A DNA stretch of 64,000 bases from Patescibacteria group bacterium (GCA_030916945.1 JAUPVS010000002.1:10688-74687), one strand, 5' to 3'. Shown: positions 53,884 to 64,000, counted from the first letter of the stretch. Notes: generated by a model not told the origin, from the sequence alone. Numbers and translations: made by a program.

Positions 53884-54303
53884 CTAAGTTGTTGCGTTCG
53901 ATACCTTGGAAAGAACGAACTTGACGATGAACTGCGACAGCGCAACCACTACAAGCCCGACTACTGCGAACAGAATTGTGTTCTTGGCAGACTGAACGTT
54001 ACCCGAGTCACCACCAGAGATGATGTATCGGAAACCACCAACGATGATCATAATCACAGCGGCTACACCGACTATGATAGAGAACGTGTTGATCACAAAT
54101 GTGATGGTGTTATTCACCGTACCCTGGGCTTCTTCGGCTGTAACGTCACAGCTACCGTCCGATGAGGCGTTAAGGTTGGCACCAGAACAAAGACCTTGTT
54201 CAATTTCGTCGGCAGCATAGACCGCGGCAGGCACCATAAGTGGAGCTGCAAACAGGCTTACTGAAACAAAAGCGACTATCGCAAGTTTAATTTTTTTGAT
54301 CAT
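53884..54303 (-). CDS. VirB2/TrbC-like T4SS pilin-family protein, paralog 1
   Basis: Signal peptide (cleavage near AVYA), a variable region, then a conserved two-TM module: INTFSIIVGVAAVIMIIVGGFRYIISGGDSGNVQSAKNTILFAVVGLVVVALSQFIV. Same topology and GG...Ax loop as VirB2/TrbC pilins. RBS AAAGGTA. Confidence 0.55.
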   Translation of the reverse strand: MIKKIKLAIVAFVSVSLFAAPLMVPAAVYAADEIEQGLCSGANLNASSDGSCDVTAEEAQGTVNNTITFVINTFSIIVGVAAVIMIIVGGFRYIISGGDSGNVQSAKNTILFAVVGLVVVALSQFIVKFVLSKVSNATT

Positions 54304-54378
54304 GAATTCTTTTTACCTTTCTTTATAACTGTTTTGGTTATATCACATCTCTGTTGTGTTGAGCAAGTCCAAATACCG

Positions 54379-54762
54379 CTAAAGCTTTGGATTTGTCAGC
54401 ACAAAGTTAACAATTAACTGGGCCAGCATAGCTACGACCAAGCCAATCACCGAGTATAAAATAGTGTCCCGAGCGCTGGCAATTTTGGCCGGCTCGCCAC
54501 CGGCGGTAATAAACTTAAAGCCAGCGATCATCAACATCACGACGGCCGCAAATCCAATTAGATAGCTCAGAATGCTTATAGCCGCTTGTAAGGTGCTTTG
54601 GACAGTTGGGCCGTCGGCCGGCGGTTTACAGTCGCTTGTGCCACCAGTTAATCCAATACCGGCACATACCGAGTCTTTAGCAGTTGCGGCCGACACAACA
54701 GCCGGGCTGGCAACCATAACCAAACTCAGTGCTATGAGGGTTAAGGTTAATAATTTCTTCAT
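54379..54762 (-). CDS. VirB2/TrbC-like T4SS pilin-family protein, paralog 2
   Basis: Start moved to MKKLLTLTL (RBS AAAGGAAAG). Signal peptide, then ISILSYLIGFAAVVMLMIAGFKFITAGGEPAKIASARDTILYSVIGLVVAMLAQLIV. Confidence 0.55.
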   Translation of the reverse strand: MKKLLTLTLIALSLVMVASPAVVSAATAKDSVCAGIGLTGGTSDCKPPADGPTVQSTLQAAISILSYLIGFAAVVMLMIAGFKFITAGGEPAKIASARDTILYSVIGLVVAMLAQLIVNFVLTNPKL

Positions 54763-54786
54763 ATGGGCTTTCCTTTTTAAGTTCAT

Positions 54787-60993: not shown

Positions 60994-61911
60994 ATGGCTA
61001 CTTACAGAGTTTTACAGGATATCGAAGCCGAAGATAAGCTGATTGGCCCGTTGAGCCTGCGTCAGTTTATTTATGCCATCATCGTGGCCGTGCTGGGTTA
61101 TGTTAGTTTTCGCTTGTTTACGGTTCAGCCATTCTTAATTATCCCGCTGGTTTTCCCGATGTTGCTATTCGGTATTTTGGCGGCGCCATTTGGTCATGAT
61201 CAAAGTTCGGAAATTTGGTTGCTAGCTAAGATTAGGTTTTTCCTTAAGCCACGAACACGTATTTGGGACCAGACCGGCATACGTGAGCTGGTGACCGTCA
61301 CCGCCCCTAAGAAAGTCGAGCAAATTCGTACCGACAACCTGGATGAGACCCAGGTCAGAAGCCGCCTCCAGGCCCTGGCGCAAACTATTGATACACGCGG
61401 TTGGGTGATTAAGGGCGTCGACGTCAACCTGTACAGCAACCCAACCTACATCGACCAAGCCTCCGACCGCCTAATTACACCAGGCAGCTTGCAAGGCATG
61501 CCGGTGTCGGATGTGAATGTAAACTCTAATGATGACATTCTTGATACTCGTAATAACCCGGTAGCTGCCCAAATGGCCCAGCTGGTTCAGGCCAACGATG
61601 AGGCCCATCGAAACGCCGTGTTGAACCACATGCAAAAGATTAGAACCATGCAGGATCAGACTGCCGTTGCACCACCATCTACACCAGTCACACCAGTTCA
61701 AACAGCCACCACCATGCCACCAACCACTGTGCCCACCATGCCACCGGCTGCTCCTCAGCAACAAGTGCCCACAACCCCTATGAAGCCAGCCCCTAACCCT
61801 GCTATACTAGAGCTTGCACACAATGATGATTTATCGGTTGCGACGATTGCTCGCCAAGCTAACAAAGCGGAGCTTTCGGATAATGACGAAGTAGTCATTT
61901 CACTCCGATAA
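60994..61911 (+). CDS. PrgI/VirB3-like T4SS membrane protein with Pro/Thr-rich C-terminal extension
   Basis: N-terminus VLQDIEAEDKLIGPLSLRQFIYAIIVAVLGYVSFRLF plus two TM helices matches the PrgI-family pattern (K.iGPlt.RQ...). It is encoded immediately upstream of the VirB4 genes, as in conjugative T4SS. Confidence 0.45.
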   Translation: MATYRVLQDIEAEDKLIGPLSLRQFIYAIIVAVLGYVSFRLFTVQPFLIIPLVFPMLLFGILAAPFGHDQSSEIWLLAKIRFFLKPRTRIWDQTGIRELVTVTAPKKVEQIRTDNLDETQVRSRLQALAQTIDTRGWVIKGVDVNLYSNPTYIDQASDRLITPGSLQGMPVSDVNVNSNDDILDTRNNPVAAQMAQLVQANDEAHRNAVLNHMQKIRTMQDQTAVAPPSTPVTPVQTATTMPPTTVPTMPPAAPQQQVPTTPMKPAPNPAILELAHNDDLSVATIARQANKAELSDNDEVVISLR

Positions 61912-61938
61912 TTTCAATCCAGGGGGCGGGCTAAATAT

Positions 61939-62823
61939 ATGGATCCATCACTACAGAATAATCAACCGAACTTAACTCCGGGCGCAGCTCCCGGCATACC
62001 GCCATATCAGCCTCCAGGCATGCCCGCGGTGGGAGTTATGCCACCCCGCGCGCCCGGTTACCAGCCACCGGCCGCTCCTTTGGCCGTCGCTAAGAGCAAC
62101 CCCAACAGCACCCAGAACACGCTTCAGATTGCCGAAATCCGGGACGGTATAGTCATTATGAACGACGGTTCATTCCGCTCGGTTATCATGCTCAAGTCAA
62201 TCAACTTCGACCTGATGAGCCTCAATGAACAAGAAGCGGTTGAATCGGGCTACCAAGCTTTTCTGAACTCGCTTTATTTTCCTATCCAGATCTTTATCCG
62301 CTCACAAAAAGTCGACCTTGAACCTTACATTGCCCGGCTCGACAAGATTCGCACCGAGCACGATAACATGCTTTTGGCGATGCTGATGGAAGACTACGTC
62401 ACTTTTATATCCAACCTGTCGGTTCAGACCAATATCATGGACAAGAAGTTCTACGTGGTAATCCCGTACTTCCCAGTAGCCGATGTCCAAAAAGCCATAA
62501 CTAACAGTAAGAACTTTTTTACGGGCTTAGGCGATCTATTCAGCAAGAAAGAGAAGCACGTCACCATTAATGAATCCGTGCTTGAACAAGCCAAAACCGA
62601 GCTAAGAAACCGTGTCCAGGCCACCTTGGCTGGTTTGATGCAGTGTAGCGTCCAGGGACTTCCGCTTGATACCCAGGAATTAATTGAGCTCTACTACGAC
62701 ACCTATAACCCTGACACCGCCACCCGGCAGCAGCTTAAGAATTTTGATGACTTGCAGGCACCGGTTGTTACCAAAGGGCAGGGGCAAGCCCCCCAGCCAC
62801 ACCTAGAAAGGGATTTGCAGTAA
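61939..62823 (+). CDS. VirB4/TraE-like ATPase, N-terminal segment (separate ORF) with Pro-rich leader
   Basis: IAEIRDGIVIMNDGSFRSVIMLKSINFDLMSLNEQEAVESGYQAFLNSLYFPIQIF matches the conserved VirB4 N-terminal block (Agrobacterium IVLLEDGSIMSIARIDGVAFELEE...; pIP501 TraE-like). Ends TAATG-coupled to the next ORF. Confidence 0.55.
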   Translation: MDPSLQNNQPNLTPGAAPGIPPYQPPGMPAVGVMPPRAPGYQPPAAPLAVAKSNPNSTQNTLQIAEIRDGIVIMNDGSFRSVIMLKSINFDLMSLNEQEAVESGYQAFLNSLYFPIQIFIRSQKVDLEPYIARLDKIRTEHDNMLLAMLMEDYVTFISNLSVQTNIMDKKFYVVIPYFPVADVQKAITNSKNFFTGLGDLFSKKEKHVTINESVLEQAKTELRNRVQATLAGLMQCSVQGLPLDTQELIELYYDTYNPDTATRQQLKNFDDLQAPVVTKGQGQAPQPHLERDLQ

Positions 62824-64000
62824 TGGCTTTTGGGAAGAAGAAAGACGCCGCGCCAACTGACCCAGTAATTCAGGCGCAGACTCAACAAATTCGCGAACAG
62901 CAAGAGGTTGAAGTCGCCTTCCGTAAAGGTATCACCGCTCTGCGTGACTTTATTGCGCCCAGCTCATTAGAGTTCAAACCCAACTATTTTAATCTTGGGA
63001 CACGCTTCGCCCGCACCTACTATGTTTTTGGCTATCCACGTCAGCTCTACACCGGTTGGTTGAGTAGCATGGTTAACCTCGACGAAGTTATCGACTTATC
63101 GATGTACATCTACCCTGTCGAAAGTCAGGTGGTTCTAGAAAACTTGCGTAAAAAAGTGAGTCAGCTTGAGGCGGGTATTCAGATTGACTCCGAAAAGGGT
63201 CGGGTGCGTGACCCGGGTAAGCAGGCTGCCATCATTGATGCCGAGGATATGCGCGACAAGCTACAAGTGGGCGAAGAGCGGTTCTTCCGATTTGGACTGT
63301 ATTTTACAATTTACGCTAATAGCACCGATGAACTAGAATTTGTATCTCATAAGGTAGAATCAATTCTTGGCCAGCAACTGGTTTACTCTAAGCCAGCTTC
63401 GTCACAACAAGAACACGGCCTTAACAGTACGGTGCCGCAATTCACCGACCAGTTACAGATTAGACGCAACATGAGCACCGGTGCACTTAGCACCAGTTTT
63501 CCATTCACATCAGCCGACCTAAGCCAAGATAATGGCATCTTGTATGGCATAAACATGCACAACTCTGGTTTGGTTATTTTTGACCGTTTTAGCCTAGAAA
63601 ACGGTAATGCCGTGGTCTTTGCCAAGTCGGGTGCTGGTAAGTCTTTTACCGTTAAGCTCGAAGCCCTGCGCAGCATGATGTTTGGCACCGAAGTATTTAT
63701 TATCGACCCCGAGAACGAATACCAGCGTATGTGCGAAGCCGTTGGCGGTGCCTACGTTCGACTGAGCCTTAACTCGTCCACCCGTATAAACCCATTTGAC
63801 CTGCCTAGAGTAGTCGACACCGAAGAAGCCGACAATGCCTTGCGCAGCAACTTAATAACCCTGCACGGCTTGCTACGACTTATGATGGGTGGCGCTCAAG
63901 CGCAAATCCAAGCGGCCGGGAACTCATCGATGATGGCTCCCGCCTTGAGCCCAGTCGAAGAAGCCGATCTTGACGCTGCCCTCATCGAAACCTACGCCAA
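62823..64000 (+). CDS. VirB4/TraE/TrbE-family type IV secretion ATPase (5' part; continues beyond window end)
   Basis: Hand-translated from ATG 62823. Walker A motif FAKSGAGKSF, the IIDPENEY Asp-box and NPFDL motif, and an upstream IAPSSLEFKPNYFNLGTRFARTYYVFGYP block typical of Gram-positive VirB4 homologues. Confidence 0.8.
   Translation, partial: MAFGKKKDAAPTDPVIQAQTQQIREQQEVEVAFRKGITALRDFIAPSSLEFKPNYFNLGTRFARTYYVFGYPRQLYTGWLSSMVNLDEVIDLSMYIYPVESQVVLENLRKKVSQLEAGIQIDSEKGRVRDPGKQAAIIDAEDMRDKLQVGEERFFRFGLYFTIYANSTDELEFVSHKVESILGQQLVYSKPASSQQEHGLNSTVPQFTDQLQIRRNMSTGALSTSFPFTSADLSQDNGILYGINMHNSGLVIFDRFSLENGNAVVFAKSGAGKSFTVKLEALRSMMFGTEVFIIDPENEYQRMCEAVGGAYVRLSLNSSTRINPFDLPRVVDTEEADNALRSNLITLHGLLRLMMGGAQAQIQAAGNSSMMAPALSPVEEADLDAALIETYA

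Follow-up and report, generated by a model that had tools for sequence, protein, structure and literature searches.

A probable chromosomal type IV secretion locus with a pilin array in an uncultured Saccharimonadales bacterium

Saccharibacteria are ultra-small bacteria that live attached to other bacteria. We analysed a 64,000-nt stretch of DNA, called the window below, from a Patescibacteria group bacterium (GCA_030916945.1, JAUPVS010000002.1:10688-74687), in which positions 53,884 to 64,000 carry what a preliminary description had read from the sequence as a type IV secretion system (T4SS) of Gram-positive type arranged in two divergent operons. Judged by the relatives of its VirB4 ATPase, the source organism is a Saccharimonadales metagenome-assembled genome (MAG), and the attribution of the system to an ultra-small episymbiont lineage therefore holds. 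A listing of open reading frames (ORFs) combined with family scans recovered every ORF named in that description, namely the pilin array and the single-pass, VirB6-like, PrgI and VirB4 genes, and added two that it had left out, of 186 and 294 codons.

Gene layout and relatives of the locus

The minus strand holds, at 53884-56546, six tandem ORFs for VirB2-type pilins of 99-219 aa, followed by the gene of a 186-aa single-pass membrane protein. On the plus strand the order is a 343-aa single-pass protein, an 854-aa polytopic protein, a PrgI/VirB3-like protein, a 294-aa TrsD-like protein and VirB4. The orientation of the genes and their tight or overlapping spacing support a reading as two putative divergent operons: the 3' end of the 186-aa gene overlaps the start of pilin 6 by 4 nt, and the virB4 start at 62823 overlaps the stop codon of the TrsD-like ORF by 1 nt. 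The features are given below; the Pfam gathering cut-offs are 26.6 bits for PF18895 (T4SS_pilin) and 27.9 bits for PF04956 (TrbC/VirB2).

53884..54303, minus strand: pilin 1, 139 aa; PF18895 43.9 bits; signal peptide and two hydrophobic helices (segments 1-19, 70-88 and 109-127)
54379..54786, minus strand: pilin 2, 135 aa (127 aa from an alternative start); PF18895 50.3 bits
54787..55173, minus strand: pilin 3, 128 aa; PF18895 36.6 bits
55173..55472, minus strand: pilin 4, 99 aa; PF18895 44.5 bits; segments 33-51 and 76-94 only, no N-terminal signal peptide
55485..55886, minus strand: pilin 5, 133 aa; PF18895 45.1 bits; alone also passes PF04956, with 33.0 bits
55887..56546, minus strand: pilin 6, 219 aa; PF18895 38.2 bits on residues 147-214
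56543..57103, minus strand: 186-aa single-pass membrane protein, first gene of the pilin strand; hydrophobic segment 37-55
57104..57233: divergent intergenic region, 130 nt, between the 186-aa and 343-aa genes
57234..58265, plus strand: 343-aa single-pass protein, head of the plus operon; disordered cytoplasmic tail of ~70 aa, one transmembrane (TM) segment, ectodomain of ~250 aa
58375..60939, plus strand: VirB6-like polytopic protein, 854 aa; ~7 hydrophobic segments; precomputed PF19590 TrbL_3 for an identical protein
60994..61911, plus strand: PrgI/VirB3-like protein, 305 aa; PF12666 PrgI 44.1 bits against a cut-off of 27, residues 5-90
61939..62823, plus strand: TrsD/TraD-like protein, 294 aa; NF041427 TrsD at 2.7e-6; NF045971 model positions 2-118; precomputed PF26593 TraC-like
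62823..64000, plus strand: VirB4 ATPase, first 392 of 643 aa in the window (extrapolated end, window 64754); NF045971

A public contig, L001, is identical to the window over the entire 11,574-nt overlap and extends 8.8 kb further. Past the window end, where the preliminary description had placed a possible VirB1-like hydrolase, VirD4 and further core genes, L001 carries three genes spaced 2-13 nt apart after virB4, followed by recF and dnaN on the minus strand. Hydrolases are indeed encoded there, in two genes; VirD4 and further core genes are not, their place being taken by a 507-aa protein and then recF and dnaN.

L001 12342-15314, outside the window: 990-aa protein with one TM segment and a C-terminal VanY/M15 peptidase domain, from the family scan
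L001 15317-17182, outside the window (extrapolated window 67743-69608): 621-aa secreted protein, phage-tail-lysozyme (Phage_lysozyme2) and M23 peptidase
L001 17193-18716, outside the window: 507-aa signal-anchored protein, no family

The VanY, Phage_lysozyme2 and M23 matches all exceed the curated cut-offs. Relaxed Pfam scans returned no match for the first ~280 residues of the 621-aa protein or for the ~750-residue middle of the 990-aa VanY protein, and were equally empty for the 507-aa protein, the N- and C-terminal domains of the VirB6-like protein, the C-terminal region of the PrgI-like protein and the 343-aa ectodomain. For the 507-aa protein no relatives were detected in Pfam, NCBIfam or PDB, a profile search against PDB sequences also passing without a meaningful match. 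The pairing of lysozyme and M23 domains in the 621-aa protein is that of the phage phi29 tail protein gp13 (weak match 3csq, E 0.009), which breaches the wall of the phage's host. An SGNH esterase domain in the same protein, suggested by a GDS(I/L) motif, was dropped as it found no support in the relaxed Pfam scan.

A one-genome-per-species scan yielded at least 553 VirB4 relatives, and locus counts were taken over the best 80 of them, which are 83-98% identical to the VirB4 of the window. Nearly all of these 80 are titled Saccharibacteria or Saccharimonadales MAGs, the rest being Patescibacteria group bacterium, bacterium or uncultured bacterium, with one Candidatus Dormiibacterota. The gene order comFC-hsp20-pilins-VirB6-like-PrgI-TrsD-VirB4-large hydrolases-recF recurs in dozens of species. 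Reference comparisons were made with the closest relative, L007, and with a closer strain, L087.

Within the divergent gap, a putative promoter-like sequence, TAGACA-17-TATAAT, lies on the plus strand at 57179-57207 (11/12 matches). It is retained in L087 and not in L007, from which the 343-aa gene is absent. The 36 nt directly upstream of the 186-aa gene (57104-57140) are invariant in both L007 and L087, and the remaining intergenic sequence varies.

Pilins, motor and exposed proteins

All six pilin ORFs score above the PF18895 cut-off (36.6-50.3 bits). Each ends in two hydrophobic helices around a conserved G-x-x-(S/A)-(G/Q)-G-(D/E)-x(5)-AK loop, and four of the six carry an N-terminal signal peptide. 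The other pilins are 24-38% identical to pilin 1, which is itself the most conserved of the set (97.8% identity in L007, 100% in L087) and is a candidate major subunit. In pilin 6 the pilin core is almost invariant relative to L007, and an N-terminal Cys-rich domain of ~120 aa is divergent with its six Cys conserved; judged by this sequence pattern, pilin 6 is a candidate tip or adhesin-bearing pilin.

Arrays could be compared in 45 related loci, with six pilins in 29, five in 13 and seven in 3. Positional orthology was scored across the 26 complete six-gene arrays: the best match lay at the same position in 26/26 arrays for pilin 1, 24/26 for pilin 4, 26/26 for pilin 5 and 26/26 for pilin 6, and at positions 2 and 3 the members of the pilin 1-3 subfamily interchange from genome to genome. 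We therefore see in the array subunits that differentiated long ago, and not a collection of recent interchangeable variants. A differentiated set also fits with each pilin being needed in strain ML1 of the cultivated relative Southlakia epibionticum.

The original reading of such an array was a different one. For Nanosynbacter lyticus TM7x, McLean et al. (PMC7427843) took the small proteins for Ptx-like secreted proteins, that is, Sec-exported effector or toxin subunits released by the T4SS as in the ptx/ptl system of Bordetella. The signal peptides of four of the six proteins and the diversity of the array would suit this view, yet here, as in work later than the TM7x paper, the same proteins match pilin models: all six pass T4SS_pilin and one passes TrbC/VirB2, and each has the paired terminal helices and loop that are typical of VirB2. 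Moreover, the reported similarity to pertussis toxin S1 amounts to 11% identity (PMC7427843), and positional orthologues are kept across species, as expected of structural subunits. We thus consider it improbable that the six proteins are secreted subunits, and treat them as pilins of the secretion system.

The motor ATPase is assigned with the help of NF045971, the NCBIfam model "VirB4-like conjugal transfer ATPase, CD1110 family". The 392 aa of VirB4 that lie in the window match this model at 1.1e-60, and the full 643-aa protein from L001 scores 359.3 bits against a cut-off of 325 over model positions 185-732. It also matches PDB 4AG5, the solved VirB4 C-terminal domain, at 7.6e-50, and both Walker A (GAGKS) and Walker B (ILVVDEAW) are intact. 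Because the TrsD-like ORF supplies the missing N-terminal positions of the model, VirB4 is, on this alignment evidence, split in two genes as in pGO1-type plasmids, with the 294-aa ORF as its N-terminal domain. This ORF stands directly upstream of virB4 in 75/80 loci, at 63-95% identity.

The PrgI-like gene is found in 70 of the 80 loci; its product has TM segments at 16-34 and 46-64 and a Pro/Thr-rich C-terminal extension. The VirB6-like family occurs in 59/80 loci at a conserved position, and the 854-aa protein of the window is laid out as a hypervariable N-terminal ectodomain (~1-200), a conserved TM core (~201-480) and a hydrophilic C-terminal domain. A profile search of this family against PDB sequences gave no meaningful match.

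The two single-pass proteins are less widely distributed. The 186-aa family is present in 14 of the 80 loci, that is, in some Saccharimonadales loci only. AlphaFold2 predicts an NTF2-like fold for its ectodomain (pLDDT 74-90, from an alignment of two sequences); the best Foldseek PDB matches of the model are NTF2-like (SgcJ 7.1e-5, PBP2a N-terminal domain 2.6e-4), and a profile of the family hits the N-terminal domain of PBP5 at 8.3e-4. SgcJ/SnoaL-like proteins, the PBP2a N-terminal domain and RsgI9 make up the 50 best Foldseek matches, without any VirB8 entry. The predicted fold is of the same class as that of VirB8, so that the protein might conceivably play a VirB8 role.

The 343-aa protein has no Pfam or NCBIfam match and 3 relatives among 5.8 billion proteins, while an exhaustive HMMER scan brought together 41 distant representatives of ~25-42% identity and the same architecture. 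With a profile of the family, genes occupying this position are recognised in L008, L009, L085, L063, L065 and L048, and on contigs P0003 and P0006 a gene of the family opens the plus operon, divergently from the pilin genes. The AlphaFold2 model of the 343-aa protein was unusable (pLDDT 37, two close homologues in the alignment), and a profile search of the family against PDB sequences produced no meaningful match. Profile-profile comparison of the 343-aa and 186-aa families aligned the TM helices only, and we do not claim homology between them.

We then compared rates of non-synonymous (dN) and synonymous (dS) substitution along the locus. Against L007 the ratio dN/dS is unreliable, dS being above 1 or saturated; because of this saturation, only dN ranks were used for L007, together with the comparison with L087. 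Within the locus dN spans 60-fold. The lowest values belong to VirB4 (0.007), hsp20 (0.008) and pilin 1 (0.014), followed by TrsD (0.027), pilin 4 (0.037), PrgI (0.039), pilin 2 (0.05), pilin 5 and the VanY protein (0.063 each) and the lysozyme protein (0.074); the highest belong to pilin 3 (0.134), the 507-aa protein (0.16), VirB6 (0.207), pilin 6 (0.276) and the 186-aa protein (0.432, at 48.9% identity). A dN of 0.007 for VirB4 at a dS above 1 indicates long vertical purifying selection, which speaks against a mobile element. Variation is also uneven within a single protein: the first ~200 residues of the VirB6-like protein are 24-43% identical to those of L007, and its TM core 87-96%.

The comparison with L087 has finer resolution. 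Here hsp20 and pilin 1 are 100% identical with dS ~0.26; at the nucleotide level hsp20 and pilins 1-2 show 92-99% identity and the 186-aa gene 89-93%, the dS of this last gene being 0.24. The 343-aa gene, on the other hand, shows a dS of 1.36 and 66% identity, and the first 98 residues of the VirB6-like protein are 40% identical; between window 57234-58700 and L087 (4407-5771), the 343-aa gene and the first part of virB6 have a nucleotide identity of 51-77%, down from ~90%. Because identity and dS are mosaic in this manner between the window and L087, we infer segment replacement by recombination, beyond faster drift.

These patterns bear on whether the machine faces the host or the epibiont itself. 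A housekeeping machine of the envelope, exporting for example wall hydrolases for growth or budding with no direct transfer to or from the host, would agree with the three hydrolase domains encoded in the operon and with a position near the origin, which suggests constitutive high expression; essentiality in co-culture, moreover, cannot tell a self-directed role from a host-directed one. Against such a role, it is the most exposed modules that are hypervariable and that form a mosaic between close strains, next to a highly conserved motor, which is unexpected for a purely internal function; the lysozyme and M23 pairing is used by phi29 gp13 on a foreign wall, and the system is enriched in host-dependent lineages. 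We regard a purely self-directed machine as unlikely.

A host-facing T4SS could be modular, combining a conserved motor and shaft (VirB4, TrsD, PrgI, the VirB6 TM core and pilin 1) with fast-evolving, recombining cassettes exposed at the surface that jointly determine the host. The cassettes in question are the pilin 6 Cys-rich head, the VirB6 N-terminal ectodomain and the 186-aa and 343-aa single-pass proteins, which on their variation are candidate host-specificity parts. We advance this proposal tentatively, as an idea that may well prove wrong. If it is true, comparative genomics of the cassettes would predict host range, and cassette swaps would retarget an epibiont.

Relation to known systems and reading of the locus

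Loci of this kind have been described before. That of TM7x was reported in 2020, including its comFC/GntX neighbour and an array of small secreted proteins (McLean et al., PMC7427843). In S. epibionticum the T4SS comprises SEML1_0006-0019, and its pilins and its absence of relaxase and coupling protein have been remarked upon (Wang et al. 2023, Cell, PMC10633639). Transposon sequencing (Tn-seq) of ML1 in co-culture found the pilins, SEML1_0011 (VirB6-like), PrgI, a 293-aa ORF, VirB4 and the hydrolases to be essential or growth-defective from the first time point, and a second VirB6-like gene, SEML1_0013, to be essential at later time points only, comFC and the NTF2-like gene being non-essential (PMC10633639).

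At a broader scale, VirB4 was detected in 2,417 of the 3,035 genomes of Patescibacteria surveyed, where it forms a monophyletic clade inside MPF-FATA, with TrsD adjoining VirB4, PrgI, VirB6, pilin arrays of 2-11 genes and a location near dnaA/dnaN (Quinonero-Coronel et al. 2025, Microb Genom, PMC12102498). A 2025 review sets the T4SSs of Patescibacteria apart from all others of monoderms because they are essential and may form a pilus (PMC12857230), and tubular structures at the epibiont-host interface of another Patescibacteria culture have tentatively been taken as T4SS pili (bioRxiv 10.64898/2026.06.21.733656). The earlier statement that the component list is poorly characterised is thus out of date (PMC7427843, PMC10633639, PMC12102498, PMC12857230). 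Because the same kind of locus was already described and shown to be essential in a cultivated relative, the present work is a correct identification in another uncultured genome and not a discovery. Its modest additions are the positional orthology of the pilins, the map of conserved and variable modules and the positional family of the 343-aa protein.

The closest comparison is with S. epibionticum ML1, with which the window and L001 share the order tRNA-Ser, comFC, hsp20, six pilins, VirB6-like, PrgI, TrsD-like, VirB4, large and lysozyme proteins, recF and dnaN. Sizes are close (PrgI, 300 aa in ML1 and 305 aa in the window; TrsD-like, 293 and 294 aa), and both are without a relaxase or a local coupling protein. 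The differences lie elsewhere: a single VirB6-like gene (854 aa) in the window stands against a pair in ML1 (1088 and 998 aa), between which lies a 278-aa NTF2-like gene; the window, unlike ML1, carries the 186-aa NTF2-like gene on its pilin strand and begins the plus operon with the 343-aa orphan-like gene; VanY is present in its post-VirB4 protein and M23 in its lysozyme protein; and the 507-aa protein on L001 takes the place of a PEGA-domain protein and a hypothetical protein. By sequence comparison the locus is the orthologue of SEML1_0006-0019 and a member of the Patescibacteria VirB4 clade derived from MPF-FATA conjugation machinery, a placement made from sequence identity to the best 80 VirB4 relatives.

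The traits of that clade as surveyed in PMC12102498 are present in the window locus, with no categorical difference: an MPF-FATA VirB4, an adjoining TrsD, a PrgI-type VirB3, a VirB2 array, no relaxase, and dnaN/dnaA nearby, together with a candidate VirB6. That survey leaned towards variation of the array as the source of host range, to which the positional orthology of the pilins and the module map are added here. TM7x (PMC7427843) likewise shares VirB4, PrgI, the GntX/comFC neighbour and 4-6 small signal-peptide proteins, and has a VirB6 to which the VirB6-like protein of the window would correspond.

The Gram-positive MPF-FATA systems used for comparison were TrsC-TrsD-TrsE of pGO1/pSK41, TraD-TraE of pIP501, PrgH-PrgI-PrgJ of pCF10 and CD1110 of C. 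difficile CTn2. The window locus shares with them a CD1110-family VirB4, a separate TrsD-like ORF (as in pGO1), PrgI, a candidate VirB6-like channel, multi-domain wall hydrolases instead of VirB1, and the absence of outer-membrane core components. It differs from them in its six VirB2-type pilins, which the Gram-positive conjugation systems do not have, in having no nearby relaxase, oriT or type IV coupling protein (T4CP), no PrgB-type adhesin and no demonstrated VirB8, and in being fixed in the chromosome beside the origin, whereas the conjugation systems sit on mobile elements.

This resemblance raises the question of a conjugative element, either an integrative and conjugative element or an integrated plasmid, whose T4SS would send DNA to other cells; VirB4 passes a model named for conjugal transfer, and TrsD and PrgI are components of Gram-positive conjugative plasmids. 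Nevertheless, no relaxase, integrase or T4CP lies within 19 kb upstream or 9 kb downstream. A scan that covered ORFs between 45.2 kb and the end of L001, and the large ORFs in the remaining window, turned up neither relaxase nor integrase, in agreement with the preliminary description, and a VirD4 or TcpA coupling protein was found neither in the locus nor in its flanks (window and L001). The sole FtsK-type ATPase in the window is a complete FtsK (1053-3281) with 4TM, alpha and gamma domains. A repeat search gave paralogous pilin segments only and no flanking direct repeats, and GC content is uniform across the window. The locus is moreover embedded in the chromosome among housekeeping genes, as had been claimed (the comFC-like gene, hsp20 and four tRNAs were all confirmed), and holds a fixed position between comFC-hsp20 and recF-dnaN in dozens of species. 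Finally, relaxases are almost absent from Patescibacteria at large (103/3,035 genomes, PMC12102498). A conjugative element is the most improbable of the explanations considered.

The comFC gene, which the window and most related loci have at a distance of two genes from the pilins, would suggest instead a machine for DNA uptake, comparable to ComB of Helicobacter or Ced of archaea, that works together with comFC and imports host DNA as a source of nucleotides. VirB4 weakly matches CedB and CedD, and Saccharibacteria are without nucleotide synthesis (PMC10633639). However, the matches to CedB and CedD fall far under the cut-off (56.7 against 700 bits), and it is type IV pili and ComEC, not this locus, on which competence relies in these bacteria. 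In S. epibionticum the T4SS genes are essential and comFC (SEML1_0021) is dispensable. Deletion of comEC ends competence with viability unaffected (PMC12857230). DNA uptake as the function of the machine appears to us quite unlikely, and none of the four rival explanations is favoured.

Taken together, we read the locus as a chromosomal T4SS of the monoderm (Gram-positive, MPF-FATA) type, conserved across Saccharibacteria and bearing pilus genes, with a probability of roughly three in four. Its parts list consists of a translocon (VirB6-like, PrgI/VirB3-like and the split VirB4), six pilins, two large hydrolases and the single-pass accessory proteins. In the mechanism that we propose, a VirB4 hexamer would be anchored by PrgI and the detached N-domain TrsD on the VirB6 channel, and would provide the energy to pull pilins out of the membrane and assemble them as a short conduit or pilus. 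Pilin 1 would likely be the bulk subunit and pilins 4-6 specialised minor subunits, of which pilin 6 would present its variable Cys-rich head. The M15, lysozyme and M23 activities would cut peptidoglycan, most plausibly both in the wall of the actinobacterial host and in that of the epibiont itself, and the opening of the wall would let the structure span the epibiont wall and reach the host membrane. The machine might then move material of unspecified nature and direction between epibiont and host, other than by conjugative DNA transfer, with the hypervariable exposed modules (the pilin 6 head, the VirB6 N-domain and the 186-aa and 343-aa proteins) meeting the host and setting specificity.

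Several points weigh against this reading and its mechanism. Of the three families named by the preliminary description as a check, PrgI and VirB4 score above their cut-offs, but the VirB6-like protein reaches only 16.6 bits on PF04610 TrbL, below the cut-off of 25.9, and just 3/30 members of its family match TrbL at E<0.01. No VirB8 homologue is established for the locus. Essentiality would be carried over by analogy from one cultivated relative, and a coupling protein could be encoded elsewhere in the genome. We know of no biochemical demonstration of a pilus of this system. The hydrolases might serve the cell's own wall only, and hypervariability could in part reflect relaxed constraint and not host-driven selection.

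For understanding how ultra-small Patescibacteria exploit other bacteria, the system offers one of a small number of molecular handles. No other monoderm T4SS is known to carry pilin genes, and in the single species tested so far it proved essential. The present copy is a further well-assembled example, from an uncultured Saccharimonadales genome, and its map of frozen and hypervariable parts points to testable candidates for host recognition while opening no new question.

Neighbouring genes and minor observations

Upstream of the locus lie hsp20, the comFC-like gene, three tRNA-Ser, one tRNA-Arg and genes for an MFS transporter, a HIT protein and valyl-tRNA synthetase. An Rfam scan of the window returned the four tRNAs and nothing else. 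The remaining window encodes FtsK, RNase J, PNPase, Pol I, primase, arginyl-tRNA synthetase, GroEL and a Mur ligase. In L007, dnaA comes after recF-dnaN (L007:19410-21774). GC skew is negative over all 64 kb, and dnaN and dnaA are just to the right of the locus; the replication fork should therefore pass from right to left through it, which would make the pilin operon co-directional with the fork and the ~14-kb plus-strand T4SS operon head-on.

Several further minus-strand ORFs of the window were noted. Two of 636 aa (10033-11943) and 1101 aa (21507-24812), lying amid PNPase, Pol I and primase, have no Pfam match. Nearer the locus are a 258-aa ORF (51538-52314) with two hydrophobic helices and, beside it, a 247-aa ORF (49298-50041), neither with a family match. 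The true start of the 258-aa ORF is probably further downstream, because the listed start overlaps a tRNA-Ser (52258-52350). At 47774-48631, a 285-aa fusion protein joins an N-terminal helix-turn-helix of Cro/C1 type to a HAD-family hydrolase.

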